Virus record (IMG/VR): IMGVR_UViG_3300045988_055277
Coordinates: 1 to 37,379 of that record
Source: a virus
Length of the DNA stretch: 37,379 bases
Strand: one strand, 5' to 3'
Shown: piece by piece, positions 2,495 through 28,400 of the stretch
Layout: each line of letters begins with the position of its first letter
Position numbering within the stretch: the stretch's first letter is position 1
Translations under genes and position numbers: made by a program
The notes under the pieces: generated by a model
Database searches by the model: none
Told to the model about the DNA's origin: nothing
The model's input: only the letters and a program-made list of their open reading frames with translations

Positions 2495-2552
2495 GGGCGC
2501 TCCTTTCTTGTGTTTTGATGAAATCTGTGATACATTCAGCGGGGGTGAAAAA

Positions 2553-2954
2553 ATGTTTACGAAAGAACAAATCGATATGCTATGCAGGCTTGAAAGCGGC
2601 TGCGCCTGGCGGTGGCATCAATCCGACCGAGATGACGGCGTTCTTCTGTTTCTGCTGGATAGCGGGTACTGCACACCGCGAGAAGATGTCGCGCCGGGAT
2701 GGATAGAACTCACCGAAAAGGGGCTCGCCGCCTTAGCTGACCTTCGCGTAAAGGAAGCAGAGCGCACCGACCGCCGCCGCGAGAAGGAACTCACGGAGGC
2801 CACGCGCCTCAAGGAACGCCAGCAGGATCGAGCCGATGAAGAACGCAGATACCGAACGCAGAACAAGATTGCGATAATAATGCCGCTTGTCACGTTCGTG
2901 CTTGGCGTCCTGGTAGAGCATTTCTACGGCGTCTTTGCGCTTCTCTTTTCTTGA
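2553..2954 (+). CDS. Hypothetical protein with a C-terminal TM anchor, oriented against the early operon.
   Basis: 133 aa, with GGGGGTGaaaaaATG. It has a globular N-terminus, a charged coiled segment and the hydrophobic tail IIMPLVTFVLGVLVEHFYGVFALLF. A possible promoter is TTGTGT (2508-2513), 17 nt, TACATT (2531-2536). It competes with the antisense ORF 2733..2963. Confidence 0.5.
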   Translation: MFTKEQIDMLCRLESGCAWRWHQSDRDDGVLLFLLDSGYCTPREDVAPGWIELTEKGLAALADLRVKEAERTDRRREKELTEATRLKERQQDRADEERRYRTQNKIAIIMPLVTFVLGVLVEHFYGVFALLFS

Positions 2955-2963
2955 AAACAACAT
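2733..2963 (-). CDS. Alternative small membrane protein, antisense to 2553..2954.
   Basis: 76 aa with two hydrophobic segments. A strong TAAGGAGGT lies 10 nt upstream, directly downstream of the cro-like gene on the same strand. Its codons are in exact antisense register with the + ORF, so base composition cannot decide between them. Confidence 0.3.
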   Translation of the reverse strand: MLFSRKEKRKDAVEMLYQDAKHERDKRHYYRNLVLRSVSAFFIGSILLAFLEARGLREFLLAAAVGALCFLYAKVS

Positions 2964-2990
2964 TAAGTGTTGACCTCCTTACGGGATGGG

Positions 2991-3191
2991 TTACTCTCTG
3001 CCGAGAAGGTAATCGGTAGAGACGCCGAAAAAGTCGGCCAACCTTGAAAGTGCAGCGCAGGGAATGCGCCCCGCATTTTCCCAGTTATGAATGGTTTTTC
3101 TTGATACTCCCATGACGCGCGCAAGATCATCTTTACTTAGGCCGCGCCTGACGCGTTCTGCTGAAATGTTCGGATATTTAGCGTGTACCAC
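2991..3191 (-). CDS. Cro-like short XRE-family HTH regulator.
   Basis: GTG at 3191 with AAGGAGG 9 nt upstream; 66 aa. The sequence ...RGLSKDDLARVMGVSRKTIHNWENAGRIPCAALSRLADFFGVSTDYLLGRE is HTH_3-like. It is divergent from the repressor gene. Confidence 0.8.
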   Translation of the reverse strand: MVHAKYPNISAERVRRGLSKDDLARVMGVSRKTIHNWENAGRIPCAALSRLADFFGVSTDYLLGRE

Positions 3192-3401
3192 TTTTCTGAT
3201 CCTCCTTCGTGTTACGCATTTCGCGTATTTATGACCATAATAATATACGCATAATGTGTAATTGTAAAGCGATAAAATGCACGAAATGTGAAGCCTTCCT
3301 TTGTACAACTTCACATATCGTGCAATCGCCCTTGACATTGTACCCAAAAAGTGTAATACTGAAATTGCTAAAATTTAATCTCATAATGAGGAGTTAAGCG
3401 C
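3192..3401. promoter_or_regulatory. AT-rich divergent promoter/operator region of the immunity switch.
   Basis: The + promoter is TTGACA (3332-3337) and TG-T-AATACT (3352-3360). The minus promoter is TTTACA (3268-3263), 17 nt, TATTAT (3245-3240). An inverted repeat lies between them. Confidence 0.6.
3279..3323. promoter_or_regulatory. Candidate operator: 15-nt inverted repeat.
   Basis: GCACGAAATGTGAAG (3279-3293) and CTTCACATATCGTGC (3309-3323) are complementary at 14 of 15 positions. The palindrome TTGTACAA (3301-3308) sits in the centre. Confidence 0.5.
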
Positions 3402-4001
3402 ATGGAGAGCTTGAAAGAATTAAGAGAAAAAGCTGGAAAATCAATGCGGCTTACCGCTGAAGATCTTGGAATACCGTATACAACATATGTAAGCTATGAA
3501 AAGGGAGCGCGGGAGCCAAACAGTGAGATGCTTGTTAAAATCGCCGAATACTACCACACGACCACAGATTTTCTATTGGGAAGACTGGCGCGAAACAGTA
3601 TGGCCGCACCAACTATAGGTGAACGCATACGCGATGCGCGAGAAGCGCGCAAGATGTCGCAAGAGGAGCTTGGACGCGCCTGCGAAACGACAAAGCAGAC
3701 GATTTATAAATATGAATCCGGCCTGGTCACGAACATCCCGCTTGATAGACTGGAAGCCATTGCAGACGCACTTGGCGTGTCCTCCGCATATCTGGCGGGG
3801 TGGGATAGTACAGAGGAATACCGAGCGTTGCACCATATCGCCGAAGATATGTATACGACAAAAGCCCCCGGCCGCATGGCCGAGGACTTGAGCACCGAGG
3901 AGCTTGAAATTGTCTCTATTCTTCGAAAGATGTCTCCAGAGCAGCTTGCGCGGGAGCTGGCGTATTTGCGACAAGCTTCCGCAGATGGGCAAGATAAGTA
4001 A
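3402..4001 (+). CDS. CI-like repressor with two XRE-type HTH domains.
   Basis: 199 aa. HTH 1 is LRLTAEDLGIPYTTYVSYEKGAREP. HTH 2 is RKMSQEELGRACETTKQTIYKYESG. It is divergent from the cro-like gene and is the first gene of the + lysogeny arm. Confidence 0.9.
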   Translation: MESLKELREKAGKSMRLTAEDLGIPYTTYVSYEKGAREPNSEMLVKIAEYYHTTTDFLLGRLARNSMAAPTIGERIRDAREARKMSQEELGRACETTKQTIYKYESGLVTNIPLDRLEAIADALGVSSAYLAGWDSTEEYRALHHIAEDMYTTKAPGRMAEDLSTEELEIVSILRKMSPEQLARELAYLRQASADGQDK

Positions 4002-4080
4002 CTTTCCGCTCTGGTGTGAGCTTGCGGTATAGGTCGATCACCGCGTTGATCGCCTGTTCAGAAATCTGTGTTTTCCCCAT
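3916..4080 (-). CDS. Possible 54-aa ORF convergent with, and overlapping, the repressor 3' end.
   Basis: MGKTQISEQAINAVIDLYRKLTPERK..., weak RBS, 86-nt antisense overlap with 3402..4001. Doubtful. Confidence 0.2.
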   Translation of the reverse strand: MGKTQISEQAINAVIDLYRKLTPERKVTYLAHLRKLVANTPAPAQAALETSFEE

Positions 4081-4301
4081 TTTCTTTCCCCTTTCCTTTG
4101 TGTAATACAACAGCGCACCCGCCGCCTCCGCAACGGCGACGGGGGCTTACAGCAGACACACCAACCATCACGCGCACCTGCTGCGGCTTCACCGTAGCAA
4201 AACCGCATTAGGCAGGTCAACGTCAAAACGAGGCAGACCGCCCCGCCGCGCCAAACCGAAACAGGGCAGGCCGCGCCCAGTTCAGGGAGGAATGAATACA
4301 A

Positions 4302-4691
4302 ATGGAAGAATCTTTACAGGAAATTTGCAGAGAAGCCAAATACCGGGCAAAGATGACGGCGCAGGATATTTCCGACTGTTCCGACGTTCCCCTGTCCAGC
4401 GTCAACAACTTCTTTTCGTCGTCTTCCAAGATGCCGTCTATCTACACCGCTGGACCTATCTGCCGCGTCCTTGGCGTGTCAATAGACGCTTTTTTTCATA
4501 TTAAGCCAACGCCCGATCCGTCACTTGAAGAGCAACTTACCCATGAGCAGGAGCTAAACCAGCTCCGCGTCAGAGCCATACATCACAAAAATTATCTGAT
4601 TTTTGGGCTGATGATCCTGCTTGCCATCGCCCTGGCATACGGCATCACAATTGACCTGCAAAATCCCAACATTGGTTTGTTCCAGAAATAA
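4302..4691 (+). CDS. Membrane-anchored HTH-like protein (degenerate XRE-like N-terminus, C-terminal TM helix).
   Basis: 129 aa, GGGAGG RBS. The N-terminal segment is KMTAQDISDCSDVPLSSVNNFFS. The TM helix is YLIFGLMILLAIALAYGITI. Confidence 0.75.
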   Translation: MEESLQEICREAKYRAKMTAQDISDCSDVPLSSVNNFFSSSSKMPSIYTAGPICRVLGVSIDAFFHIKPTPDPSLEEQLTHEQELNQLRVRAIHHKNYLIFGLMILLAIALAYGITIDLQNPNIGLFQK

Positions 4692-4749
4692 AACATCATA
4701 GGAAAAGCCATCGCGTTTACAAGCGCGGTGCGGTAAGGAGGGGTAGAAT

Positions 4750-5391
4750 ATGCTTAGTTCCATCGTGCATCTCTCGTCCATCGTGGCGGCCGGAATGGTT
4801 CTCTATGCTGGATTCCGTGTTGCGAAAAAGGAAAAGAAGATCACGGACAGGCTGTTTGAAAAATGGGCTGTGGTGTTCTTCCTCGTGACCGGATTGATGC
4901 TTGTTTGGGATCTCTCCCGTGACCTGAAGAACAATATACCTGACGGAGAATACGACATCAGGGTAGAGGCGCATAGCAAAAGTTGGAAATTTGACCGGTA
5001 TCTATCGGCTGTTCTGGCCGTGCAGACGGATATAGATAGCGAGCCGTACCGAGACACGGACCGGCTGACCAAATCGACGCGATACACCCTGTGCGGCGTG
5101 TTTTACGGGAAAAGCCAAACGCCCAGAAACTGGCGAAGACTTGACATTGATGTGCATCCTCCGGAAGCGATCAGTGTGGAAATCGACAACAAGCTGTGTG
5201 ATCTTACGATTGACCGCGTTTCCGCGTCGTCGCTGGGCGTGACGCCTTCCGATAACTGGCGTCTACAGCCAACAATGAACAAGATAATGTATATTTCCGT
5301 CCCGATACTGTGCGCGATCGGCACAATTCACGGGATTCTAATAGACGAGATAGAGAAGAGGAGGGCTATGGAATGGCAAAAAAGATCATAG
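4750..5391 (+). CDS. Three-TM membrane protein with a central roughly 110-aa soluble domain (hypothetical).
   Basis: 213 aa, TAAGGAGG RBS. TM segments lie near residues 5-22, 41-60 and 178-198. G+C is visibly lower than in the phage core. Confidence 0.8.
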   Translation: MLSSIVHLSSIVAAGMVLYAGFRVAKKEKKITDRLFEKWAVVFFLVTGLMLVWDLSRDLKNNIPDGEYDIRVEAHSKSWKFDRYLSAVLAVQTDIDSEPYRDTDRLTKSTRYTLCGVFYGKSQTPRNWRRLDIDVHPPEAISVEIDNKLCDLTIDRVSASSLGVTPSDNWRLQPTMNKIMYISVPILCAIGTIHGILIDEIEKRRAMEWQKRS

Positions 5392-5726
5392 CGGCAATGC
5401 TGGCTTTTTCGCTGGTTCTTGCTATTACGGCCTGCGGTGATGCACCGGTCGAGGAGGCAAAACAAACGAGCTCTCCGTTGCCCGTAGAGGATCGCGAGCC
5501 GACGGTAACGCTGCAAGAGACGCCAGACAGCACCTGCTTTTCTGCTGTCGGATATGACAGCGCGGGACAGGTCTTGTTTGTGCAATTTCGGGAAAGCGGC
5601 TCCATCTATTCCTACGACGATGTTCCGGCGCTTGTGTACAGCGACCTGATGAATGCCGAATCTATGGGCGGCTACTACAACGGATATATAAAGGGACATT
5701 ACACGGCACACAGACTTACGGACTAA
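5373..5726 (+). CDS. Lipoprotein with a KTSC-like domain.
   Basis: The start is taken at MAKKIIAAMLAFSLVLAITAC (signal peptide plus lipobox ITAC), with GAGGAGGG 7 nt upstream. The C-terminus, FSAVGYDSAGQVLFVQFRESGSIYSYDDVPALVYSDLMNAESMGGYYNGYIKGHY, fits the KTSC-domain pattern as I recall it. Confidence 0.8.
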   Translation: MAKKIIAAMLAFSLVLAITACGDAPVEEAKQTSSPLPVEDREPTVTLQETPDSTCFSAVGYDSAGQVLFVQFRESGSIYSYDDVPALVYSDLMNAESMGGYYNGYIKGHYTAHRLTD

Positions 5727-5731
5727 AATAA

Positions 5732-5761
5732 GCCGTCCCCTGCTGCAACAGGGGACGGCTC
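5732..5761 (+). terminator. Hairpin after the cassette (12-bp perfect stem, no clear U tract).
   Basis: AGCCGTCCCCTG-ctgcaa-CAGGGGACGGCT. Confidence 0.5.
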
Positions 5762-5883
5762 AAGCGAAACACCCACGAACAACCACCACGTCATTAGCAG
5801 GACGGCAAAACTGCCACGTTTCGATGCCAGTATAGCACGATTCGCCGCCGCCTGCAAGCGAAAAAAGAGGAGGATTGACTATT

Positions 5884-6936
5884 ATGGCAAAAAAGAAGTA
5901 TTATCAGAGGCCGGACGGGATCTTTGAGACGACCCGGACGGTGAACGGGAAGCGGGTGCGCTTCCGGGGCAAGACCTGCGCGGAGGTAGACCGGAAGATA
6001 CTGGCCTACAACGAGGAGATGCAGAAGGGGAGGAAGATGCCGAAGATCATCGACGAATGGCAGGAGATGCACAACGAGGAGGTATCGGAATCCACGCGGC
6101 GGGTCTATGATGTGGCCGTGCGGCGTATCCGGGAGGCATTCCCAGGCTATGCCGGCGCGTATACACCGATGGACGTGAAGCGCTATATCACGGCATTTGA
6201 AAAGAAAGGGTTTTCCGCGTCCACGGTCAGCGTGGAGCTGGGGGTGCTGAAGCAGGTGTTCTCCCACGCGGTGCTGCAAGGCGACATTGCCGTGTCTCCG
6301 GCGACGGAGGTACGGGCAAGCCGCGGACTGCCGAAGAAGGAGCGCAGCGCCCTGACGGAGGAGCAGGAGGCATTGGTGGAGGCGTACCGCGGAGAGGACT
6401 TTTTGCTGGGGTTGATGATGCTGTACACCGGCTGCCGGCGCGGGGAGCTGCTGGCGCTGACGTGGCAGGACATAGACCGCGACGCCGGGGTGATCCACGT
6501 CACGAAAAAAATCAACTACGCCACAGGCAAGCCGGTTCTGGAGCACAAGCTAAAGAGCAAGAACAGTCAGCGGGACATCCCCATTCTCGCGCCGCTGGCG
6601 GCGGTGCTGCCGCAAAAGCCGCGCATTGGGCTGATCTTCTGCGGGGAAGACGGCGCCCCCATGAGCATAGGACACTGGAATAGGCGGTGGATATCCTACA
6701 CGGCGCGGGCGGGGATCAGCGGCATTACGCCGCACCAGTTCCGGCACAGCTTCGCCACGCTGATGTATGAGGCGGGCGTGGACAGCAAGCAGGGCGCGGC
6801 CTTTCTTGGCGATACGGAGGACGTGCTCAAGGGTGTTTATGAGGAGCTGCGGAGGAGCCGCGCGGCCAGTGGCGCGGCTCGGCTGGACGCCTATCTGGAG
6901 ATGCGCAGAGCGGAGGCGGAGGCGCGGCACGGCTGA
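5884..6936 (+). CDS. int: Tyrosine recombinase / phage integrase.
   Basis: 350 aa, AGAGGAGGA RBS. It has an N-terminal SAM-like core-binding region. The catalytic-domain signatures are LMMLYTGCRRGELLALTW, HQFRHSFATLM and GDTEDVLKGVY. Confidence 0.95.
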   Translation: MAKKKYYQRPDGIFETTRTVNGKRVRFRGKTCAEVDRKILAYNEEMQKGRKMPKIIDEWQEMHNEEVSESTRRVYDVAVRRIREAFPGYAGAYTPMDVKRYITAFEKKGFSASTVSVELGVLKQVFSHAVLQGDIAVSPATEVRASRGLPKKERSALTEEQEALVEAYRGEDFLLGLMMLYTGCRRGELLALTWQDIDRDAGVIHVTKKINYATGKPVLEHKLKSKNSQRDIPILAPLAAVLPQKPRIGLIFCGEDGAPMSIGHWNRRWISYTARAGISGITPHQFRHSFATLMYEAGVDSKQGAAFLGDTEDVLKGVYEELRRSRAASGAARLDAYLEMRRAEAEARHG

Positions 6937-7171
6937 CGGCTTACTGTGTACTTTTACTGTGTACTTTCTGTGTACTTTTTACTGCCTAAGTATAACAGAG
7001 CATAACAGTATCTTGCAGGGCTGAAACCGTTGTCGCACAACGGAAAGCGCCTATTTGCAAGGGGTTGGAGCGGGTGCGTGGTTTTTAACGCGCCATTACG
7101 ATAGAATGTTGTAATTGCAGGCGGTGGCGATGGCTACTGTGTACAAACTGTGTACTTCGGTTTTTTTTGAA
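6937..7171. other. Candidate attP: direct arm-type repeats flanking a roughly 160-nt core region.
   Basis: CTGTGTACTTT occurs at 6944-6954, 6957-6967 and 6968-6978. CTGTGTAC(AAA) is at 7137-7144 and CTGTGTACTT at 7148-7157. A hairpin CCGTTG-tcgca-CAACGG lies at 7027-7043. The region directly follows int. Confidence 0.55.
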
Positions 7172-13653: not shown

Positions 13654-14706
13654 ATGGCTATCAATTATGCTATCAAGTACGCGACTAAGATCGCGGAGCG
13701 TTTCAAGATCGCATCCATCACCAACGAAGACTGCGGCCACGACTATACGTGGGCAGCGCCCAACAGCAAGGTGATCCGTGTTGGCAGCGTGAACACGGTG
13801 CCGGAGACCGAGTACAAGCGCAGCGGCGACAACCGCTTTGGCCCCGTGTACGATGTGGGCGACACGCTGCAGGAGATGGAGTGCAAGATGTCCCCCTCCT
13901 TCAGTTTCACCATCGACGCGCTGGACGGATCTGACCGCGCTATTCAGGTGTCCGCCGCCCGTTCGCTGCGCCGGCAGCTGGACGAGGTGACCACGCCCAA
14001 CATGGATAAGCACCGTATCCGCAAGTGGGTGATGGGCGCCAACATCCAGATCAAGGAGGCTACCGCGCCCACCAAGACCACCATCGGCGGCATGATCATC
14101 GACGCCAACGCCAAGATGACCGACGCGCTGGTGCCCATGGACGGGCGGACGCTGTACATCGGCACGGAGTATTACAAGCTCCTGAAGCAGAATCCCGACT
14201 ATCTGGGTGTGGACGCGCTGGGCAAGGAGGCACTGACCCGCGGCGTGGTCGGCGAGTTCGACGGCTGCCGCGTGAAGCCCATTCCCTCCCGGTATATGCC
14301 CGCCGGCGTGTACTTCTTCATTAAGCACCGCAACAGCACGGTTGACCCGGTGAAGCTGGCGAAGTACGACATTCTGCCCAAGGTGCAGGGCTATTCCGGC
14401 CCCGTGGTGCAGGGCGTGACGTACTACGACAGCTTTGTGCTGGGTGCCAGAGGCGACGGCATCGCCGTGTGCGGCAACGCGGCCATTCTGGACGCGCCCG
14501 TCATGAGCATCAGCACCCATAAGGTGACCATCACCGCCGCAGACGGCGTGGTGTTCATGTACACCACCGATGGCTCCAACCCCCGTTACAGCACCACCGC
14601 GCAGGTGTATACCGCGCCGGTAACGCTGGCGGTCGGCGAGACGCTGCGTGCAGTGGGCACCAAGGACGGCTGCGTGGGCATCGAGGCCGCAAAGGATTAC
14701 GAATAA
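13654..14706 (+). CDS. Major capsid protein with a C-terminal Ig-like / chitobiase-C-like decoration domain.
   Basis: 350 aa, following the scaffold gene. The C-terminal segment is ISTHKVTITAADGVVFMYTTDGSNPRYSTTAQVYTAPVTLAVGETLRAVGTKDG. A strong hairpin lies downstream. Confidence 0.8.
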   Translation: MAINYAIKYATKIAERFKIASITNEDCGHDYTWAAPNSKVIRVGSVNTVPETEYKRSGDNRFGPVYDVGDTLQEMECKMSPSFSFTIDALDGSDRAIQVSAARSLRRQLDEVTTPNMDKHRIRKWVMGANIQIKEATAPTKTTIGGMIIDANAKMTDALVPMDGRTLYIGTEYYKLLKQNPDYLGVDALGKEALTRGVVGEFDGCRVKPIPSRYMPAGVYFFIKHRNSTVDPVKLAKYDILPKVQGYSGPVVQGVTYYDSFVLGARGDGIAVCGNAAILDAPVMSISTHKVTITAADGVVFMYTTDGSNPRYSTTAQVYTAPVTLAVGETLRAVGTKDGCVGIEAAKDYE

Positions 14707-14716
14707 AGCCCCAACC

Positions 14717-14751
14717 ATAGGGCGGACACTGACCCCCGGTGTCCGCCCTAT
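14717..14751 (+). terminator. 13-bp perfect hairpin after the capsid gene (possible partial terminator or attenuator).
   Basis: ATAGGGCGGACAC-tgacccccg-GTGTCCGCCCTAT followed by TCCCTTC. Confidence 0.5.
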
Positions 14752-14792
14752 TCCCTTCATATACGGGGGAGGATACAGAGAAAGGCGAGCGC

Positions 14793-16178
14793 ATGGCACA
14801 CAGAGACAACACACCGACGCTGCGAACCGGCGAGCTGAACCCAAAGCAAAAGCTATTCTGTCAGGCGAGGAGCCGGTATGTGGCTTACGGCGGCGCACGA
14901 GGCGGCGGAAAGACCCATGTGCTGCGGGTAAAGGCGGCAGGCGGCGCGCTGGCCTATCCCGGTATCCGGATCCTGATCGTGCGCAGAGAGTACCCGGAGT
15001 TGGAGCAGACCATCATCATACCCATGCGGAAGATGATACCGCCGGAGATGGCGGCGTATAACGGCACCATGCGTATGTTCACCTTCTGCAACGGCAGTGT
15101 GATCAAATTCGGACACTACGACGCAGGCGGCGACGTGGAGTATCAGGGTCAGGAATGGGACTGGATATTTCTGGATGAGGCAACGCACTTTACGGAGAGC
15201 CAGTTCCGCACGCTGGGCGCGTGCTTGCGCGGCGCCACGAAAATACCGCGCCGGATGTACCTGACTATGAACCCCGGCGGCGTGGGGCACGCCTGGGTAA
15301 AGAGACTGTTTATCGACAAGGAGTATACGGCTGATGAGCGGGCGGAGGACTACACCTTTATTCCCGCCACGGTGGACGATAACCCCCAGCTATTGGAGGC
15401 TTCCCCGGAGTATAAGCAGATGCTGGATCTGCTGCCGGAGAATGTGCGCCGCGCGTGGCGTGACGGCGACTGGAACGCCATGGCCGGCACGTACTTTCCG
15501 GAGTTTAAGGCGGATACGCACGTTGTGGAGCCATTTGCAAAGGTGCCGCGTGAGTGGCGGAAATACCGGGCATTCGACTACGGCCTTGATATGTTCGCCT
15601 GCCTTTGGGTGGCGGTGGACTATGACGGCAGGGCGTGGGTCTATCGCGAGGTACAGCAAAGCGGGCTGATCGTGTCGGAGGCGGCGAAACTGATGAACGC
15701 ACTGACGCCGCCGGAGGAAACGATCTTTGCGACCATCGCGCCGCCGGATATGTGGGCGCGGCAGAAGGACAGCGGAAAGAGTATGGCCGAGATATTCGCA
15801 CAGAACGGCGTGGGGCTTATTAAGGCCAGCAACAACCGCATTCAGGGCTGGATGGCGGTAAAGGAAATGCTCAAGCCGCTGCGCAGCGAGCGCGACAGGC
15901 CGGGCCTTCTGGTGGCCAACTGCTGCCGGGGGCTGATCCGGAACATGGCGCTGATACAGAGCGACAGCAAGAACCCCAGCGATTGCGCCACAGAACCCCA
16001 CGACATTACCCATATCTGCGATGCGGCGCGGTATTTCTGTGCCACACGCACCATTGCGGCGCAGTTGGCCGCGCCGGTGCGGGAGCAGGAGCCTTACGAG
16101 GCAGCGGCGGCGGACTATGACGACGAGATGACCGGCGGCGAGATGACCGGCAGCTATCTGACATACGGAGGTGGTTAA
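14793..16178 (+). CDS. terL: Terminase large subunit.
   Basis: The start is taken at MAHRDNT. Walker A is GGARGGGKT and Walker B is WIFLDEATH. The C-terminal nuclease region is FDYGLDMFACLWVAVD...ICDAARY. Confidence 0.93.
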   Translation: MAHRDNTPTLRTGELNPKQKLFCQARSRYVAYGGARGGGKTHVLRVKAAGGALAYPGIRILIVRREYPELEQTIIIPMRKMIPPEMAAYNGTMRMFTFCNGSVIKFGHYDAGGDVEYQGQEWDWIFLDEATHFTESQFRTLGACLRGATKIPRRMYLTMNPGGVGHAWVKRLFIDKEYTADERAEDYTFIPATVDDNPQLLEASPEYKQMLDLLPENVRRAWRDGDWNAMAGTYFPEFKADTHVVEPFAKVPREWRKYRAFDYGLDMFACLWVAVDYDGRAWVYREVQQSGLIVSEAAKLMNALTPPEETIFATIAPPDMWARQKDSGKSMAEIFAQNGVGLIKASNNRIQGWMAVKEMLKPLRSERDRPGLLVANCCRGLIRNMALIQSDSKNPSDCATEPHDITHICDAARYFCATRTIAAQLAAPVREQEPYEAAAADYDDEMTGGEMTGSYLTYGGG

Positions 16179-17996: not shown

Positions 17997-19676
17997 GTGA
18001 AAGGATTGAGCGATAACTTTACGCCGCAGAGTGTATTTGCGGAATACAACGCGGGCGTACACTTCTGCGAGGGAATCGACCTGTACGACACGGTGCAGAC
18101 CAACGAGAACTTTTTCATCGGAAAGCAGTGGGAGGGCGTACAGGCGAACGGTCTGCCGACACCTGTATTCAACTTCCTGAAGCGCGTGGTGTTGTTCAGC
18201 GTGGCCAACATCAGCACGGACAATCTGAAGCTCCACGCAAAGCCGCTCAATGGCGGCGGCGATGCGCCTGCATGGCTGCTGGAGATGTACAGCAACATCC
18301 TGAACGACCAGTTTACCTCCATTTTCGAGAAGAACAAAATGGGCGGGTGTATCCGTGAATACTGCCGGAACGCGGCGGTGGACGGAGACGGCTGTATGTA
18401 CGCATGGTGGGACGCAGACATGGAGACGGGGCAGGCCCGGAAGGGCGGCATCCGGACGGAGGTGCTGCAGAACACGCAGGTGCTGTTTGGCAACCCCAAC
18501 AGCCGGGATGTGCAGAGCCAGCCGTATATCATCATCCTGCGGCGTATGCTGGTGGGTGAGGCGCAGCGGTACGCCAGAGAGATGGGCGTCTGGGAGGAAA
18601 ACGTGCAGGCCATTACGCCGGACGACAAGGAGACCGGCAATATCTCCATGGATCAGCTGGGCGGGAACAAGGTGACGGTGATGCTGCGCCTGTGGCGAGA
18701 CAGCGAGACAAACACCATCCACGCCTATGAATGCACACAGGCGGCAGAGGTGCGCGGTGAGTGGGATATGGGGATCAGGCTCTATCCTCTGGTGTGGATG
18801 CCGTGGGACTATGTGCAGGACTGCTATCACGGACAGGCGATGATTACCGGACTGATCCCCAACCAGATCTTTGTGAACAAGCTGTTTGCAATGAGCATGA
18901 TCTCCCTGATGACGCTGGCTTATCCCAAAGTGATGTATGACAGGACGCGCATTGCGGGGTGGAGCAGTAAGGTCGGCGCGGCCATCGGCGTAAGCGGCAA
19001 CGTGGACGGGGCTGCGAAGATCATCGACCCGGCACAGATCAGCCCGCAGATCAGCCAGTTTATCGAGCTGGCCATCAGCTACACGCAAAAGTTCCTGGGT
19101 GCAACGGACGTGGCGCTGGGCGACACGCGGCCTGACAACACAAGCGCCATTATCGCCCTGCAGCGCGCGGCTGCTACGCCGATGGAGCTGACAAAGCAGA
19201 ACCTTTTGCAGAGCGTGGAGCAGCTAGGCGACGTGTTCATGGAGTTCATGGCCGAGTACTACGGGACGCGGCAGGTGGAGGTATCTGACAGGGAAACCGG
19301 AGAACAGATGTATGTTGGGTTCGATTTCAGCGTTCTGCGCGAGGTACCGTGCAGCATCGACCTGGACGCAGGCGCCAGCTCCTATTGGAGCGAAATTGCC
19401 AATATGCAGACGCTGGACAACCTGCTGATGCAGGGGAAGATCCCCACCAGCGAATACCTGCGGCGTCTGCCAAACGGACAGATCAGCGACAGAGAGCGCC
19501 TGATCGCCATCACGGAGGCGGCAGAGCGCGGCGCGATGCCGGAGATGATGGGACAATCCGGCGGCGCAGAGCCGGAGATCGACGAGGCGGATATTCCGGT
19601 ACGAGGCGGCGCTGGATACGGCGCCTTACAGCGGAAGATCAACGAGAGCGGCGCGGTGCCGAGAACGGAGGGATAA
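17997..19676 (+). CDS. Portal protein (probable).
   Basis: 559 aa. The N-terminal segment is NENFFIGKQWEG...GLPTPVFNFLKRVV. The stem/tunnel-like segment is GDTRPDNTSAIIALQRAAATPMELTKQNLLQSVEQLGDVFMEF. The C-terminus is acidic. The start is uncertain: GTG at 17997, or TTG at 18006 with GAGGTG upstream. Confidence 0.7.
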   Translation: MKGLSDNFTPQSVFAEYNAGVHFCEGIDLYDTVQTNENFFIGKQWEGVQANGLPTPVFNFLKRVVLFSVANISTDNLKLHAKPLNGGGDAPAWLLEMYSNILNDQFTSIFEKNKMGGCIREYCRNAAVDGDGCMYAWWDADMETGQARKGGIRTEVLQNTQVLFGNPNSRDVQSQPYIIILRRMLVGEAQRYAREMGVWEENVQAITPDDKETGNISMDQLGGNKVTVMLRLWRDSETNTIHAYECTQAAEVRGEWDMGIRLYPLVWMPWDYVQDCYHGQAMITGLIPNQIFVNKLFAMSMISLMTLAYPKVMYDRTRIAGWSSKVGAAIGVSGNVDGAAKIIDPAQISPQISQFIELAISYTQKFLGATDVALGDTRPDNTSAIIALQRAAATPMELTKQNLLQSVEQLGDVFMEFMAEYYGTRQVEVSDRETGEQMYVGFDFSVLREVPCSIDLDAGASSYWSEIANMQTLDNLLMQGKIPTSEYLRRLPNGQISDRERLIAITEAAERGAMPEMMGQSGGAEPEIDEADIPVRGGAGYGALQRKINESGAVPRTEG

Positions 19677-19679
19677 GAT

Positions 19680-21665
19680 ATGGCATTGACAGAGTTTGAG
19701 AAGAACATGGACATCATTGCGGCGCTTGACGATGAGCCGAACGACGTGGGCGGCCTATCGGCGGCGGAGCTGAAGGCCAAGTTCGACGAGGGCGGAAAGG
19801 CGCTGCAGGACTACATCAACAACACACTGCTGCCGGCGCTGGATAACGCCGGCGTGGAGCGCTCTGTGCTGCTGCCGCTGCTGGACGCCGGGTTCAAGTA
19901 TATGCGGCTGAACAGCGACAAGGTTCTGGAGGTCAGCACGGACGGCGAAGCGTGGCAGGCGACAGGATCTTCCGGACACCTGGTCTACGGCAAGAACGGG
20001 GGGCAGCTTCCCCAGCGCAGCCGGTTGAAGTTTGCCAACAGCGAAGTGACGGACGACGGCACCTATACCATTGTGCAGGGCGTGAAGGGCGACACCGGCG
20101 CTACCGGACCGCAGGGCGCACAGGGTATCCAAGGCCAAAAGGGCGAAAAGGGCGACCGAGGGCAGGTGCTGGTACCCAATGTGGACGGCGAGGGCGTGAT
20201 GTCGTGGAGTGTACAGGAGCCGCCTGCGGCTGTTCCCGCGCCGCGCAACATCCGAGGGCCGCAGGGCATCCAAGGTGTGCAGGGTGTACAGGGTGCGCAG
20301 GGCCAGCGCGGCGTACAGGGTGCGCAAGGCCCGCAAGGTCCGCAGGGCGTACAGGGTGAGCCTGGACGAGACGGCGCGGACGGACGCAGCTTTGCAATCA
20401 AGGGTATGTACGCCACGCTGCAAGAGCTGCTGGAAGCGCATCCCACGGGCAGCGTGGGTGATGCCTACGCCGTGGGAACGGCTGCCAGCAACACCATTTT
20501 TAACTGGAACGCGGACAAGGGTACCTGGGATGATCTGGGCGGCTTGAAAGGTCCGCAGGGCGAGCAAGGCCCACAGGGCGAGCAGGGCATACAAGGCGTG
20601 CAGGGTGAACGCGGGCCGGAGGGACCGCAGGGTGTGCAGGGTCCGCAGGGAGAGCAGGGCATCCAAGGCCCGGAGGGCCCGCAGGGTCCGGTGGGACCGG
20701 CAGGCCCGCAGGGAGAGCCGGGGCCGGCCTACACCGCCGGGGAGAACATCTCCATCAGTGGCAGCGTGATCGCTACCAAGGCGTTTCCGTGTAACCCCAA
20801 CCTGCTGGATAACTGGTACTTCGGGAATCCGGTGAATCAGCCGGGGCAGACGGAATGGCTGTCCTCTGCAAGCGTTAATGTTCCGTGCGTAGACAGGTGG
20901 AATTGGTGGGGGCAGTATATAGCGGGTTCAACCTTAAAGCTTCTGAATGATGGACTGCAACTTATCGGAAACCCCGAAGGAGGAGGACTTTATCAGCAAA
21001 TCGTACAGAAGATTGAAAAGGATAGGTTGCCTGTCGGAGCAACCGTTACACTATCTGCTCTTGTCAAGGCGGAGGCTGACGCTTCAATTATTCTCAGCAT
21101 AGGCGGACAAAACTATGCGGCCGTGATGGTTCCAGCGAACACATGGACGTTAATCGCTGGCGTAAAAAATGTGCCAAGTGTCGAGCAGACGCATAGCATA
21201 GGTATCCAGCGAAATACAGCTGGAGTAACTTTTACTGTTAAAGCAGTCAAGCTGGAGCTTGGCTCTCAGCAGACGCTGGCCCATCAGGAGGACGGCGTGT
21301 GGGTGCTGAACGAGATCCCCGACTACGGCGAGCAGCTGAGACGGTGCCAGAGGTACTACTGGCGCTCTTGGCGTGGCGAAAAAACAATTAACACCGCTAT
21401 CCTTGGAGAAACATTTCCAAGTAATAGTAGGAGCAGAATTGTAGGATTCTCATATCCCGTGGAAATGAGAGAGAAGCCGAGTATTATAATTTCTGGAACT
21501 AATAGTGTTGGAAGTGTGAACGACTGGGTAGGCGATGGGGAGATTGAATGCGGCGCTAAAGCGTTGTATTACGATAATCAAAGGTGCATGGCCGTTGGTG
21601 CCGACATCCCCCTTACGGATTATGAATATGTATATTACTTTGTCGAGGCATCTGCCGATTTGTAG
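19680..21665 (+). CDS. Collagen-like tail fibre / receptor-binding protein.
   Basis: 661 aa. Three Gly-X-Y blocks lie at about nt 20079-20162, 20256-20384 and 20541-20726. A C-terminal non-collagen domain follows from about 20760. Confidence 0.88.
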
Positions 21666-23473: not shown

Positions 23474-24286
23474 ATGCCGACGGTACAGGCTGTGGTGGCG
23501 CTGCTGGAGGGCGAGCGGGGCTATCTGGAAAAGAAGTCCAACGCCCAGCTGGACAGCAAGACCGCCAACGCGGGGTATAACAACTACACCAAGTATACGC
23601 GGGACATCGACGCGGCGGGCATCAACGACGCCAAATATCAGGGGCAGGCGTGGTGCTGCAGTCTGGCCATCTGGCCGGAGCTGCACCTGTCCGGCGCGGC
23701 AGAGGCGCGGGAGCGGTTCTACCTGCCGGTGCCGTCCAAGTGCAAGGCGTACAACTGCGAGTGGCTGGCGGGGTATTTCCGCAGTGCCGGTGCGTGGTAT
23801 GCGGAGCCGCAGGTGGGAGACTTCATCTTCTTCCGCACGGCCCGGTACAGCTACGCCCATGTGGGCCGCGTGGTGGCGGTGGACAGCACGACGGTGTACA
23901 CCATCGAGGGCAACACCTCCGGCGACTATGGTGTGGTGGCAAACGGCGGCGGGGTGTTTCGCAAGTCGTATAGCCTCGGCTCGTGGAACATTGTTGGCTA
24001 CGGTCGCCCGAAGTGGAAGGGCGGCGAGCAGGACGACACCGGAAAGAAGGAGGACGTCAAGTTGGACATGAAGGTACGTATGCTCAAGCGCGGTATGAAG
24101 GGCGCAGACGTGAAGACCCTGCAAGCGGCGCTGATCGCCTACGGCTTTTCCTGCGGCGCGGCCGGTGCGGACGGCGACTTCGGCACCGGAACGGAGACGG
24201 CGCTGAAGAAGTTCCAGACCAAGTACGGCCTCGGCGCTGACGGTATCGCAGGAAAGGGGACTTGGGGCAAGCTGCTGGGGGAGTAA
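23474..24286 (+). CDS. Endolysin: N-terminal CHAP domain plus C-terminal PG_binding_1 domain.
   Basis: The CHAP segments are GQAWCCSLAIW (catalytic Cys) and YAHVGRVVAVD...TIEGNTS. The binding-domain segment is GADVKTLQAALIAYGF...DGDFGTGTETALKKFQTKYGLGADGIAGKGTWGKL. Confidence 0.93.
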   Translation: MPTVQAVVALLEGERGYLEKKSNAQLDSKTANAGYNNYTKYTRDIDAAGINDAKYQGQAWCCSLAIWPELHLSGAAEARERFYLPVPSKCKAYNCEWLAGYFRSAGAWYAEPQVGDFIFFRTARYSYAHVGRVVAVDSTTVYTIEGNTSGDYGVVANGGGVFRKSYSLGSWNIVGYGRPKWKGGEQDDTGKKEDVKLDMKVRMLKRGMKGADVKTLQAALIAYGFSCGAAGADGDFGTGTETALKKFQTKYGLGADGIAGKGTWGKLLGE

Positions 24287-25402: not shown

Positions 25403-28400
25403 ATGCAGAAATTCACGGCGGGAGACGCAAGAGACCGCATTATGAGCCGGGCAAACGCGATGGGCGCCGTAGAGCAGTCGGACAGCTCGGCGGCACGAGA
25501 CCGCGTGCTCGCACGTGCGGCGAAGCTGGGCGAGGTGAGCGCGGCTTCGTCTGGCAGTCAGGCGGTCGGGACACAGGCCGCCGCACCAAAAAGCGAGGCG
25601 CAGCGCCGGGTGGACAACCTGCCTAATATCCACGCCTTTGGTGCCGGTGAGGATAAGGGCGCGGGAAAACTGCTGGAAAGAATATGGAAAACGGCGGCAT
25701 CCGGCGCTGTCGGCGCGGCAAGCGGGATCAGGGAGATCATGGCGCAGGCCTCGCCGGTAGACCGGGAGCAGCACATGGGGACCTTTTCCGGCTTCGGCGA
25801 CTTAGGCCGTGCGGTGTCGGTGAGCCGGGAGACGGGGGAGAGCCTTGACGAGGTGACAGACCGGCTGGAGAGGGAGCGCCAGCAGCGGCGGATCAAGGAG
25901 CGCCAGCGGATACAGGGCGAGGCTGACCAGCTGGCGGCTCTTAGCGGGCGGCTGCACAGCGAGGCAAAGGACGGCACCGGAAAGGTGGGCGGCTTTCTTG
26001 TTGACCTGGGCGTGGCCGGTACGCAGATGGCAGGCGATGCGCTGGCCAATGCGCTGCTGCCCGGCAGCGGCCTTGCACTGATGGGTATTCGCTCCTACGG
26101 ACAGTCCGCCGGAGAGGCGCGGCGCGCCGGACTGACGGAGGAGCAGCAGTTTGCATCCGGCCTGAAAAGTGCCTCCATCGAGATGCTGACGGAAAAGCTG
26201 TTCGGCGGTCTGGCAAAAGCCTATGGCGCAGGTACGGCAGATCAGGTGGTGGAGCAGATCGCGGACAAGCTGACAAGCAGCGAGGCGGGAAAGCGCGCGG
26301 CGGTCTGGCTTATCAACTCCGGCGGCGAGGGCTTGGAGGAGGTACTGTCAGACGTGCTGAATCCCGTCGCGGATCGGGCGCTGAATCTGGACGGGCTGGA
26401 TCCCAATGCGCCGCTGCGCTTCACAGCAGACGATGTGGCGCAGATGGGCTATGACTTCCTGCTGGGCTCGGCGATGGGCGCTATCGGCGGCTCCGGGCAG
26501 TTGAAGTCTGCCATTGATGCGCGAAAGGCCGAGAAAGCTGCTTTGCGCGGCGCACAGCAGCAGGGAGACGGTCAGGCCGCTACATTTGATGGGCAGAAAC
26601 AAAACGCCGCAGAGCGGGTTACAGGGCCGAACGCGGCAGAGGGAAATACAGCGCCCACACCGGCAGAGATGCCGGCGCAGGCGCTGGAAAGCTCCCCTGT
26701 GCAGGGCGCGGGGAATGGTCGTCAGCAAGTAGACGCGCCCCTTGCCCCTCTGGGCGTTTCAGCCACACAGGAGAGCAGCAACAGCGTACCACAGATCAAC
26801 GGCGAATACAAGGGGATCGACGAACTTTTGGGCGCCGCAAAGCGGAATCGCGCGCCCGCCCGCAATGTAGTGGATGTCATGCGGGGAATGACCCAGGAGG
26901 ATTTAGATCGGTTTACCGCCGAGAGTGAAGCAGGTAAATATGGGCTGGACGCCGCAGACAACTTCTTTCGCGTAAAGCCGGAGGAGCATATCGACAACCG
27001 GGAGAGCAGCACCGTTGGAGACCGGCGCATGAATGCCTTCCAGTTTGACCACCCGGAGCTGCACCCGTTCTACGTTGAGGCGGCAAGGCAGCTGCAGATG
27101 GATATGCAGAACGTGCAGCGAGGCGGAGAGGTGTACAGCGTGGCGGATCGGGACGGAGACTGGCGGCCGCGGTATCTGCGGACAAAGCGTGTTGCTTCGG
27201 ATGCCATTGTGGGGCTGAAGGACAGCGACCACCTGACCTATGCCCAGATCGACAAGGCGCTGTCCGACATCATCGCAGATCGCGGGCAGGAAAACTATGC
27301 CGCTGCAAAGCGGGTGGAGCTGGTGCTGGACAAGATGCTTTCCGAGGGGTACACCGCCAGCGACGGAGACTATGCGGCGAATCCCGAATATTTACAGCGA
27401 AAGGCAAATATCCTTGGCACGCAGACCGGCAGCGAGGATGTGGCCCGTGCCGACAGCGAGCGGACGTGGCGGCAGCGCCTGCAGCAGGCAGAGGACGGAA
27501 CTTTCGAAAATCAGGCAGACACGGACATCGCGGAGAAGTGGGCGCAGGCGGCGCGGCCGGAGGGCTGGGAGCAGCAGTACGAGGGGCAGGAGCCGCCGGC
27601 GCGGGAGACCTATGCACCGGAGGAAAGCCATGTCACGCCAGGAGGAGACGACGGACTGGGCGGCGCGGACAGGGGCAGCCTGAACAGCGACTTCCAGAAT
27701 ATGCAGGCAGGGAGTGACCGTTTCCATCCCGTAAATCGGAACGCAGGGGAAAGGATCCGCAGAGAGCAGAACCGCGCCCCCTCGGAGGTGCCGGAGGTGA
27801 ATCCGGAGACGAGAGAGAACATTACAAAGACGGTGAGCACGATCCTGAACGCGCCCATCACATCACCGGAGATGGCACCCATCATTGAGCAGAGCGTGGC
27901 AAATGGGCGCTTCGACTATGCCAAGGTGACGGATCAGGCGGCGATGGACACCGCCAACCGCGCTATCGACGCGCTGGGCGGCTACCAGAAGGCGGCAGCG
28001 AATTTCAACGCCAAGGTGGAGCTGGGACAGCGGGTCACGAAAGAGGACTACGCGCTGGGCGTGCAGTCCTATAACGAGGCAGTGAGCGCCGGAGACACGG
28101 CGCTGGCGCTGGAGCTGGCGGGGAATCTGGCGGATGCCGCGCACACAGGCGCACAGGTTACGCAGGCGGTGAACCTGCTGAACCGGCTGACACCGGCGGG
28201 AAAGCTGCTGACGCTGCGGCGGTATGTGGACAAGCTGAACCGCGAGAGCGCGCCCAAGCAGCAGAGGCGGGGCAACAATCTGACGGCAGATGAGCGGCGG
28301 GGTATGTTTGTAGACGAGGCGTACCAGCTGGGCGTGGACGAGCAGCTGGCCACGGACTATCTGATGGCAGAGACAGACGCGGCGCGGGCGGAGGCGTGGC

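Follow-up and report, generated by a model that had tools for sequence, protein, structure and literature searches.

The window, ie the whole stretch of 37.4 kb (37,379 nucleotides) that was analysed, is a complete virus record bearing terminal repeats and belongs to a temperate phage. Three intact plus-strand genes, named here g1 (4302..4691), g2 (4750..5391) and g3 (5373..5726), occupy the interval from the repressor gene to the integrase gene, as a preliminary description of this DNA had reported, in the order repressor, g1, g2, g3, int. The 199-aa repressor (3402..4001, plus strand) carries two XRE-type HTH domains, with matches to HTH_3 in two stretches (E 4.3e-31) and to phrog_8, transcriptional regulator (E 2.5e-40), and its gene forms the left border of the cargo slot. 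The tyrosine integrase is encoded at 5884..6936 on the plus strand (Phage_integrase E 1e-18, phrog_1 E 1.9e-58). It is followed at 6940..7160 by an attP-like region, read from the sequence and conserved after int in relatives, which contains CTGTGTACT arm-type repeats; these repeats are likewise found 3' of int in the related loci L002, L003, L006, L010 and L018. A 15-bp hairpin follows g3 (5729..5762), with a T-run 3' of it on the minus strand only. Oscillospiraceae, a monoderm family, is the sole organism name attached to any homologue of g1, and is probably the family of the host. All the named source samples are gut or faecal metagenomes.

The three genes share the strand of the repressor and int, as first described, but they do not simply sit on the repressor transcript, because a spacer of 300 nt intervenes. 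No consensus plus-strand promoter was found upstream of g1-g3 in the window. The spacer holds a structured element, considered below, and a conserved minus-strand ORF of 54 aa (3916..4080) which runs towards the repressor gene and overlaps its 3' end. That ORF is called as a gene in relatives, has a strong Shine-Dalgarno sequence and is 87-89% identical in L002, L003 and L010; a family search gave no match for it, and its standing as a coding gene is uncertain. The low G+C that had been judged by eye for positions 4302-5726 was borne out by computation (0.506, compared to 0.594 for the genome, at the 3rd percentile of 1425-nt windows), but it is not specific to these genes, since the dip spans approximately 2500 to 5900 and takes in the cro-like and repressor genes as well.

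The product of g1 (129 aa) has a cytoplasmic XRE-type HTH at its N-terminus, joined by a linker to a C-terminal membrane helix, as indicated by profile and hydrophobicity analysis and by its homologues. For the HTH and the anchor, both noticed at the outset, the evidence is as follows: the match to HTH_3 (PF01381) is weak (E 8.6e-4, 19.7 bits, below the Pfam cut-off of 23), many relatives that are 85-93% identical carry a precomputed match to that family, and the single hydrophobic segment comprises residues 96-121. The external tail is only about 8 residues long, and g1 therefore has no sensor domain. BcrR, ToxR/CadC and RodZ also combine an HTH with a membrane anchor. Compared to these, g1 has one helix and no sensor domain, is borne by a phage and linked to an integrase, and its DNA binding is putative. 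At least 139 homologue clusters were obtained for g1, compared to 7 for g2 and 17 for g3. Pairwise dN/dS was 0.10-0.18 for g1, 0.13-0.27 for g2 and 0.07-0.38 for g3, values which indicate purifying selection on all three and give no sign of arms-race selection.

Directly 5' of g1 there is a near-invariant element of 124 nt (4169..4292, assigned to the minus strand), which precedes every g1 gene (38 instances, 17 distinct sequences) whichever gene comes before it. It was folded on both strands. For positions 4105-4310 the single-sequence fold had a z-score of -3.29 on the minus strand and -1.06 on the plus strand, and the consensus fold of the element gave -52.0 and -36.4 kcal/mol, respectively. 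The same helices are 98.3% paired when read on the minus strand compared to 78.1% on the plus strand, and 10 of the 16 variable pairs stay paired on the minus strand, compared to one of 16 on the plus strand. The pattern of substitution thus fits a minus-strand RNA structure, the complement of the element covering the g1 Shine-Dalgarno sequence. The alignment contains no compensatory double changes in the helices, and shuffle controls of the structure carry no information, since variation is confined to only one side of each pair. No consensus minus-strand promoter was present in the sequence upstream of the element. A promoter-like site at 4722-4695 on the minus strand, examined as a possible start for antisense transcription, was rejected as it is not conserved in relatives. 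The element matched none of the Rfam 15 covariance models; the sole Rfam match, a chance lncRNA with an E value of 1.3, lay elsewhere in the stretch. Sequence, alignments and folds also identified a G+C-rich hairpin at 4118..4145. The corresponding hairpin of L035 has a T-run after it and resembles a plus-strand terminator, while L002-type relatives have a promoter-like TTGCTT-17-TATAAT in its place. One reading of 4169-4292 is a short structured RNA opposite a gene of the lysogeny region, like lambda OOP RNA and the cis-antisense RNAs of temperate phages. Compared to OOP the transcript, its promoter and its target are putative, and the strand assigned rests on an asymmetry of wobble pairs among closely related sequences.

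Profile searches, hydrophobicity and a model were used to characterise g2 (213 aa). The three membrane segments predicted earlier were found (residues 1-22, 35-53 and 179-199), but the beta-rich loop between the second and third is about 125 aa and not 110 aa. The Lys/Arg-rich stretches that follow TM1 and TM3 indicate that the loop is extracytoplasmic. The ectodomain spans residues 54-178, and the invariant residues of g2 include C150 and the motif LGVTxxDNW. The fold is unreadable because the AF2 model is poor (pLDDT 56.3). Foldseek, proposed in the preliminary description as a check, found nothing below E 0.2 with that model, and its matches were disregarded. An exhaustive search brought together 26 distant proteins of the g2 family, whose alignment is too diverse for pattern scans. 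The family profile retrieved nothing below E 0.38 from PDB sequences, Pfam scans of 16 members gave scattered chance matches only, NCBIfam gave no match, and the PHROG matches were to families of unknown function at E 1e-3 or weaker. No relatives of g2 were detected in isolate phage genomes (tblastn, E up to 0.1), in species-representative bacterial genomes or in JGI metagenome contigs, nor in IMG/VR with g2-family queries. As far as these comparisons reach, g2 is a member of a small family without a Pfam, NCBIfam or PDB relative or a PHROG function.

The third gene, g3, encodes a 117-aa protein made up of a signal peptide, an acidic linker and a C-terminal KTSC domain, assigned from Pfam, the lipobox, homologues and fold. 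The description of g3 as a KTSC lipoprotein whose start overlaps g2 agrees with these assignments. A hydrophobic segment covers residues 1-26, and the signal peptide ends in the lipobox I-T-A-C with Cys21, the sequence reading MAKKIIAAMLAFSLVLAITAC; g3 is thus a predicted lipoprotein. The lipobox cysteine and the linker motif PLPVEDxEP are invariant across 13 homologues. In the KTSC domain (residues 44-117) C55 is an invariant residue as well. The match to KTSC (PF13619) covers profile positions 2-58 of 58 (E 1.8e-19, 69.6 bits, cut-off 25), and even with E values of up to 1 allowed, the Pfam scan gave KTSC only, the Ltp repeat domain (PF07553) being absent. In the AF2 model the core of the domain has a pLDDT of 80-89. 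With this model the top Foldseek matches were the KTSC domain of HerA (8wof, 8wld) and 7x8c, each with probability 1.00; sequence matches to PDB 7x8c and 4rgi were obtained at E 1e-9 to 3e-8. The KTSC fold of g3 is confirmed at the level of the predicted model. The PHROG matches, phrog_3292 and phrog_8113, contain KTSC and are both of unknown function.

KTSC domains are otherwise cytoplasmic. The cytoplasmic proteins compared here (7x8c from Methanolobus vulcani, 4rgi, and the C-terminal domain of HerA in SIR2-HerA, 8wiv/8wld) have the domain in common with g3 by both sequence and fold; they are neutral to basic, whereas g3 is exported, lipid-anchored by prediction and strongly acidic. The net charge of mature g3 is -10, and mature exported KTSC proteins range from -4 to -20, compared to +1 and +4 for the same region of solved cytoplasmic proteins. 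Binding to nucleic acid has been reported or predicted for KTSC proteins (PMC9503650, PMC8541194), and a paper cited by PMC11237433 is described there as reporting that one archaeal member binds ssDNA. The strongly acidic character of mature g3 argues against such an activity. A KTSC match in Flavonifractor phage Chenonceau was set aside as irrelevant; it is encoded within the replication module, antisense to the annotated genes, and is not a lipoprotein.

The preliminary description treated g1, g2 and g3 as one cassette, and this did not survive comparison with other loci. g1 occurs without g2 or g3 in at least 25 of the loci examined, mostly directly before a different, zinc-ribbon-type integrase that is only 24% identical to the one in this phage. 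Two further phage backgrounds (L006-L009 and L018-L022) have the g2-g3 pair but no g1. Judging by these loci, g1 together with its upstream element is an independent unit. Each g2-g3 pair found adjoins an integrase of this phage's family (63-81% identical in the identity matrix), the two genes overlap by 16-19 nt in every locus (19 nt here), and g2 was only ever found together with a lipoprotein gene; the loci are mostly close relatives, so that this co-occurrence represents roughly three independent backgrounds. In L006 and in the RecT/YqaJ phage L018 the pair begins 12-17 nt 3' of an S24-type repressor gene, a spacing which implies co-transcription with the repressor in those phages.

KTSC proteins of the g3 type were found without g2 in at least 10 loci from about ten phage lineages, with varied neighbours. 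Such genes adjoin an integrase in L023, L027, L035-L039, L042 and L043, mostly between integrase and repressor, and at least three clearly different types of integrase are represented. In L040 and L041 the exported KTSC proteins are encoded among membrane-protein genes, with no integrase within the stretch examined. Relatives with this phage's integrase family contain g2 and g3, only a KTSC lipoprotein, different small membrane proteins, or no cargo at all (the last two kinds include L026 and L028). The interval between repressor and integrase is, in these phages, a slot for variable cargo, which speaks for the original interpretation. Since it recurs without g2 across lineages, the exported KTSC lipoprotein is, on the genomic comparisons, the recurrent cargo; g2 accompanies it optionally, and g1 lies beside it as a separate unit.

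We tentatively favour the view, to which we give somewhat less than an even chance, that the locus holds two independent accessory units, one of which would be produced during lysogeny and would counter superinfecting phages at the surface of the cell. Recombination would have placed the first, g1 with its upstream element, beside the second, the g2-g3 pair. The first unit would supply a membrane-tethered XRE-type HTH protein. The second would be translationally coupled and would travel with this phage's integrase family and attP. g3 would expose its strongly acidic KTSC domain at the external side of the cytoplasmic membrane, with the beta-rich domain of g2 facing the same way, the exported KTSC protein being an autonomous recurrent cargo of the slot and g2 an optional, faster-evolving partner. 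The pair may bind a component of phage entry or ejection or mask a membrane receptor, in the manner of Ltp, Sie2009, Llp and Cor, and would work through protein-protein contacts rather than by binding nucleic acid. By position and topology only, superinfection exclusion would be the best reading.

The int-repressor interval is where streptococcal and lactococcal phages encode Ltp and Sie proteins, which are expressed in the lysogen. Ltp of Streptococcus thermophilus phage TP-J34 (PF07553) is a prophage lipoprotein tethered outside the membrane of a monoderm host, and its proposed action is on incoming phage at the stage of DNA entry. g3 resembles it as a predicted prophage lipoprotein on that side of the membrane, would likewise act on incoming phage, and has the same location between repressor and integrase, a slot it also occupies in those relatives in which both genes were seen. 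Compared to Ltp, g3 has no kinship in sequence or domain (it has KTSC and no Ltp repeat), often has a membrane-protein partner, and is only a candidate for exclusion. The Sie2009-type proteins of lactococcal P335 phages are small membrane proteins which are expressed in lysogens and block DNA entry, and their genes, like g2, lie between those for repressor and integrase; g2 differs in having three TM helices with a 125-aa ectodomain, and matches no PHROG annotated for exclusion. Llp of phage T5 and Cor of phi80/N15 are lipoproteins that mask a receptor by acting on FhuA in diderm hosts. Binding to a host surface protein so as to stop superinfection would be a plausible working model for the acidic g3, although neither is homologous to g3 and any mechanism for g3 is drawn by analogy. 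The scan for defence genes, proposed in the preliminary description as a check, gave nothing significant in PADLOC-DB v2 (best E 0.031, g1 to PDC-M12B; no match for g2 or g3), and no exclusion annotation occurs among the PHROG matches of g1-g3. The missing PADLOC match, Ltp domain and PHROG exclusion annotation, the 300 nt between the repressor gene and g1-g3, the lack of a consensus plus-strand promoter in front of them and dN/dS values free of any arms-race signal count against exclusion, as does the fact that KTSC is otherwise a cytoplasmic domain for which nucleic-acid binding is reported or predicted.

The same evidence of position and topology would serve equally if the KTSC lipoprotein, with or without g2, were lysogenic-conversion cargo that alters the host envelope for the benefit of the bacterium, through adhesion, cation binding by an acidic surface, or the ability to tolerate bile or stress on the envelope. 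The extreme acidity of mature g3, the lack of a match to any defence model and the gut or faecal origin of all the named samples suit that explanation. However, no homology to an adhesin, transporter or stress protein was found, the slot is best known in Firmicutes phages for exclusion genes, and nothing in the analysis separates conversion from exclusion; we consider it possible but doubtful. As originally described, the products of g1-g3 are envelope proteins by prediction, and no housekeeping homology was found for them. A role for g2-g3 in the phage's own cycle, as a spanin pair or another accessory of lysis or egress, is suggested by the overlap of a downstream lipoprotein gene with a membrane-protein gene, as in Rz/Rz1. 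We regard such a role as very improbable, because g2 has three TM helices where an i-spanin would have one N-terminal anchor, and because the pair belongs to the lysogeny module and shares the strand of the repressor and int (directly 3' of the repressor gene in L006 and L018), far from the lysis and structural modules and about 18 kb from the endolysin (23474-24286); the structural genes are at 13.6-30 kb. The likely host family is, moreover, monoderm, and has no outer membrane to span. An Rz/Rz1 identity was rejected on topology, location and host envelope, only the gene overlap being alike.

Two further explanations involve g1, and we think each of them unlikely. A single three-gene system, in which g2 and g3 form a sensor pair that sets the membrane-tethered g1 regulator in the manner of ToxR-ToxS or BcrR and so controls exclusion, defence or the lysis-lysogeny decision, would provide the sensing partner that g1, nearly without an external domain, would need. 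It would also account for the distant locus L035, where a g1-like protein is again accompanied by a KTSC lipoprotein and a polytopic membrane protein, and for L012, in which g1 again adjoins a polytopic membrane protein. Against this, g1 and the g2-g3 pair occur apart in the loci described above, gene order and partners vary wherever genes of the three types meet, and g1 keeps its own conserved upstream element whatever precedes it. That element is the basis of the other explanation, in which g1 and its leader resemble a toxin-antitoxin or OOP-like unit; a minus-strand RNA from the 124 nt would pair with the leader and ribosome-binding site of g1 and so restrain a membrane-active protein, with a role for g1 in abortive infection or prophage stabilisation. 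The constant linkage to g1, the strand-asymmetric wobble compatibility and the overlap with the g1 Shine-Dalgarno sequence agree with this. The lack of a consensus minus-strand promoter and of compensatory double substitutions does not, g1, at 129 aa and with an HTH, is unlike type I toxins, and the good plus-strand promoter in L002-type relatives would make the element the 5' UTR of g1.

Returning to surface exclusion by g3 with or without g2, the list of Gram-positive entry-blocking proteins is short, and temperate phages abound in gut Clostridia but have seen hardly any experimental work; we know of no exclusion genes from them. If the function holds, that list would gain a new family of proteins, and the KTSC fold a new use. 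The statement that a KTSC lipoprotein would be new in this role still stands, as no paper describing an exported one in exclusion was found in the literature searched. A wider proposal, which we put forward as speculative, is that exported, lipid-anchored, acidic KTSC proteins might constitute a new and widespread prophage exclusion family in gut Clostridia, a cytoplasmic nucleic-acid-binding fold having been repurposed for protein binding at the surface, with g2-family proteins as exchangeable partners for specificity or scaffolding and the adjoining XRE protein under the control of a cis-antisense RNA. If exclusion fails, the exported KTSC family still marks the cargo slot of these phages. 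A guess from a single locus has become a defined, testable candidate, an exported KTSC family found beside the integrase, mostly on its repressor side, in about ten phage lineages. The minimal construct would be g3 alone, followed by g2-g3, with g1 left out. Of smaller interest are the g2 family, with no Pfam entry and no structure, and the element upstream of g1.

Three genes stand between the repressor gene, with two HTH domains (3402-4001), and the tyrosine integrase gene, int (5884-6936). The first, g1 (4302-4691), encodes 129 aa with a divergent XRE-type HTH and a single hydrophobic helix in its C-terminal part (residues 96-121); its match to HTH_3 (E 8.6e-4) falls under the Pfam cut-off, which many relatives 85-93% identical to it exceed. 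The second, g2 (4750-5391), encodes 213 aa with three hydrophobic helices and a beta-rich loop of about 125 aa, which the positive-inside rule places outside the cell. In the 117-aa product of g3 (5373-5726), a signal peptide bearing the lipobox ITAC is followed by an acidic, disordered linker and then by a KTSC domain (Pfam E 1.8e-19). The top structural matches of its model are the HerA KTSC domains (8wof, 8wld) and 7x8c, and at the level of the predicted structure the KTSC fold is confirmed. ORFs, Pfam, hydrophobicity and the model thus bear out the preliminary description of the three products, as well as the overlap it reported, the g3 start codon lying 19 nt ahead of the g2 stop codon. 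The low G+C that it judged by eye is real, 0.506 for the g1-g3 region against 0.594 for the genome (3rd percentile), but the zone extends over the cro-like gene (2991-3347, minus strand) and the repressor gene too. Pairwise dN/dS of 0.07-0.38 across g1, g2 and g3 shows them to be real genes under purifying selection.

The first proposal is borne out as regards a cargo slot and products that belong to the envelope, but not as regards a single three-gene cassette. Among 5.8 billion protein clusters searched, those with homologues of g1 number at least 139, against 7 for g2 and 17 for g3. Co-occurrence was assessed from the contexts of homologues and by HMM and phmmer over all ORFs of 77 fetched loci. 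g1 is found without g2 or g3 in at least 25 loci, and in the g1-only loci a zinc-ribbon-type integrase, 24% identical to that of the window, follows about 100 nt downstream. g2 is seen only directly 5' of g3, with an overlap of 16-19 nt, and only beside integrases of the window's family, which are 63-81% identical and have the same arm repeats. Two further phage backgrounds, L006/L007 and a RecT/YqaJ phage (L018-L022), have the g2-g3 pair but no g1; the L018 copy of the latter is integrated beside transporter and two-component genes of the host. In each background g2 starts 12-17 nt past an S24-type repressor gene, a spacing which implies co-transcription with that gene there. The most plausible reading of the window arrangement is a junction made by recombination, with repressor, leader and g1 on one side and g2, g3, int and attP on the other.

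Exported KTSC proteins 32-54% identical to g3 also occur next to integrases without g2. In some loci the KTSC lipoprotein stands between an ImmA-like gene (L027/L034) or an S24 repressor (L039) and int, or a TM-anchored KTSC protein lies between repressor and int (L043). Elsewhere the orders are S24 repressor, 4-TM protein, KTSC lipoprotein, small HTH, int (L036/L038); repressor, ImmA-like fragment, KTSC lipoprotein, second lipoprotein, small HTH, 253-aa protein, int (L037); polytopic membrane protein, KTSC lipoprotein, g1-like protein, int (L035); KTSC lipoprotein, unrelated 2-TM protein, int (L023); and int, KTSC lipoprotein, second lipoprotein (L042). In L040/L041 the KTSC lipoprotein is 3' of membrane-protein genes, on a fetched stretch without an integrase. 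Members of the window integrase family also stand beside small, unrelated cargo (L026) or without any (L028). These varied occupants mark the repressor-integrase interval as a cargo site, of which the exported KTSC protein is the recurrent, autonomous occupant, with g2 its optional partner and g1 a separate unit.

When 1.84 billion representatives were searched exhaustively by profile, 26 proteins emerged as the g2 family; most are about 200-220 aa long, repeat the arrangement of three helices and an ectodomain, and share the motifs IPDGxY, YLPADL and VNIGxISPxxLGITxxDNW. The family is small but real; no relative was found in Pfam, NCBIfam, function-annotated PHROG or PDB, and it is an undescribed membrane-protein family. 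Judged by identity between the window and L018 (int 81%, g3 71%, g2 46%), g2 is more diverged than g3 or the integrase; against L006 the values for g2 (61%) and int (63%) are similar.

Three features of g3 do not vary among its homologues: the lipobox Cys, the PLPVEDxEP motif of the linker, and a Cys where the KTSC domain begins. KTSC is taken in the literature as a nucleic-acid-binding domain (PMC9503650, PMC8541194), and an archaeal KTSC protein that binds ssDNA is cited in PMC11237433. All the mature exported KTSC proteins are strongly acidic, with net charges of -4 to -20, whereas two solved cytoplasmic KTSC proteins carry +1 and +4 over the same region. This reversal of charge makes nucleic-acid binding by the exported proteins unlikely and points to a protein-binding role. 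As a family, an exported KTSC lipoprotein is new.

The analysis shows gene order, strand, topology, the coupled translation of g2 and g3, and repeated occupation of the cargo slot. Ltp, Sie2009, Llp and Cor are established examples of envelope action against incoming phages, and by analogy the products here would be expressed in the lysogen and act on incoming phages at the outer face of the membrane. Searches of g1-g3 against defence and exclusion families, the functions first suggested, matched none. Exclusion, within the corrected two-unit structure, is a tentative reading to which we give somewhat less than an even chance. Its main rival is an envelope or fitness role unrelated to phages, for which the same exported products in the same slot would serve. 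In kind, the products are ordinary prophage accessory surface proteins, encoded beside an integrase. An integrated three-gene sensor would unite the HTH of g1 with the g2 ectodomain and the lipoprotein, and is less likely; g1 and the g2-g3 pair each occur apart. Also less likely are a spanin-like role, with a lipoprotein gene overlapping a membrane-protein gene but sited beside int, and a toxin-antitoxin-like role for the HTH protein g1, which bears a membrane helix.

g1 has a conserved companion. A near-invariant 124-nt element (4169-4292), with a hairpin close by at 4118-4145, precedes every g1 found (38 instances, 17 distinct sequences), whatever the upstream neighbour, and its conservation exceeds that of the coding sequences. 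Immediately 5' of it, L002-type relatives carry a + strand promoter close to consensus, by which it would be a g1 leader. Its fold and substitutions, however, agree better with a minus-strand RNA. For 4105-4310 folded as a single sequence, z was -3.29 on the minus strand against -1.06 on the plus strand, and the consensus fold gave -52.0 against -36.4 kcal/mol; the same helices are paired 98.3% against 78.1%, and variable pairs kept paired in all variants number 10 of 16 against 1 of 16. Compensatory double changes in the helices were absent among the aligned sequences, the shuffle control was uninformative, and an Rfam search of the element matched no family. The strand evidence is suggestive only, because the element sequences are closely related; the element could be a cis-antisense RNA covering the g1 ribosome-binding site. 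Nearby, a minus-strand ORF of 54 aa (3916-4080) is convergent with the repressor gene and overlaps the final 86 nt of that gene; its Shine-Dalgarno sequence is strong and its conservation in relatives 87-89%. Its motif LxxLTPE(R/Q)K...YLAxLR resembles one in the repressor C-terminal tail, encoded by the opposite strand. It might be a small partner, an anti-repressor or an overlap artefact.

Other genes of note lie in the slot or in related loci. Four loci (L026:2888-3337, L036:3780-4004, L037:1741-1953, L038:3780-4004) encode, between cargo genes and int, a small HTH protein of XRE type, soluble and 70-75 aa long; since it stands where g1 stands elsewhere, some HTH gene upstream of int seems a regular feature of such modules. 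Cys-rich polytopic membrane proteins of 219-241 aa, without family assignment and 29% identical (E 1e-28), are encoded in the repressor-integrase slot at L012:4079-4804, adjoining g1, and at L035:2798-3457, adjoining the KTSC lipoprotein and g1-like genes. In L041, a viral contig of lower GC, exported KTSC-type genes lie in tandem (2968-3402 and 3327-3719; one TM-anchored, one lipoprotein) 3' of a 3-TM coiled-coil protein, which shows duplication of the module. The 233-aa 2-TM protein 3' of the KTSC lipoprotein in L023 (615-1316) ends in a Cys-rich motif with weak likeness to the Ada zinc-binding domain (NCBIfam E 0.028). L038 has two additional small genes (4175-4955) separating its small HTH gene from int; they encode a 130-aa protein and a 161-aa HTH-containing protein, resemble a toxin-antitoxin pair by eye, and would add to the cargo of this slot.

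The 37,379-bp window, a virus record with direct terminal repeats, is complete. It also encodes a Bro-N/ANT antirepressor (1721-2494), major head protein (13654-14706), large terminase (14739-16178), portal (17997-19676), tail-fibre-like protein (19680-21665) and endolysin (23474-24286), with arm-type repeats CTGTGTACT 3' of the integrase gene. Gut and faecal metagenomes are the source samples, and 'Oscillospiraceae bacterium' is the sole organism name on any homologue. No tape-measure gene was recognisable among the window ORFs scanned. An ORF of 1671 aa lies 3' of the endolysin gene, at 25403-30418.
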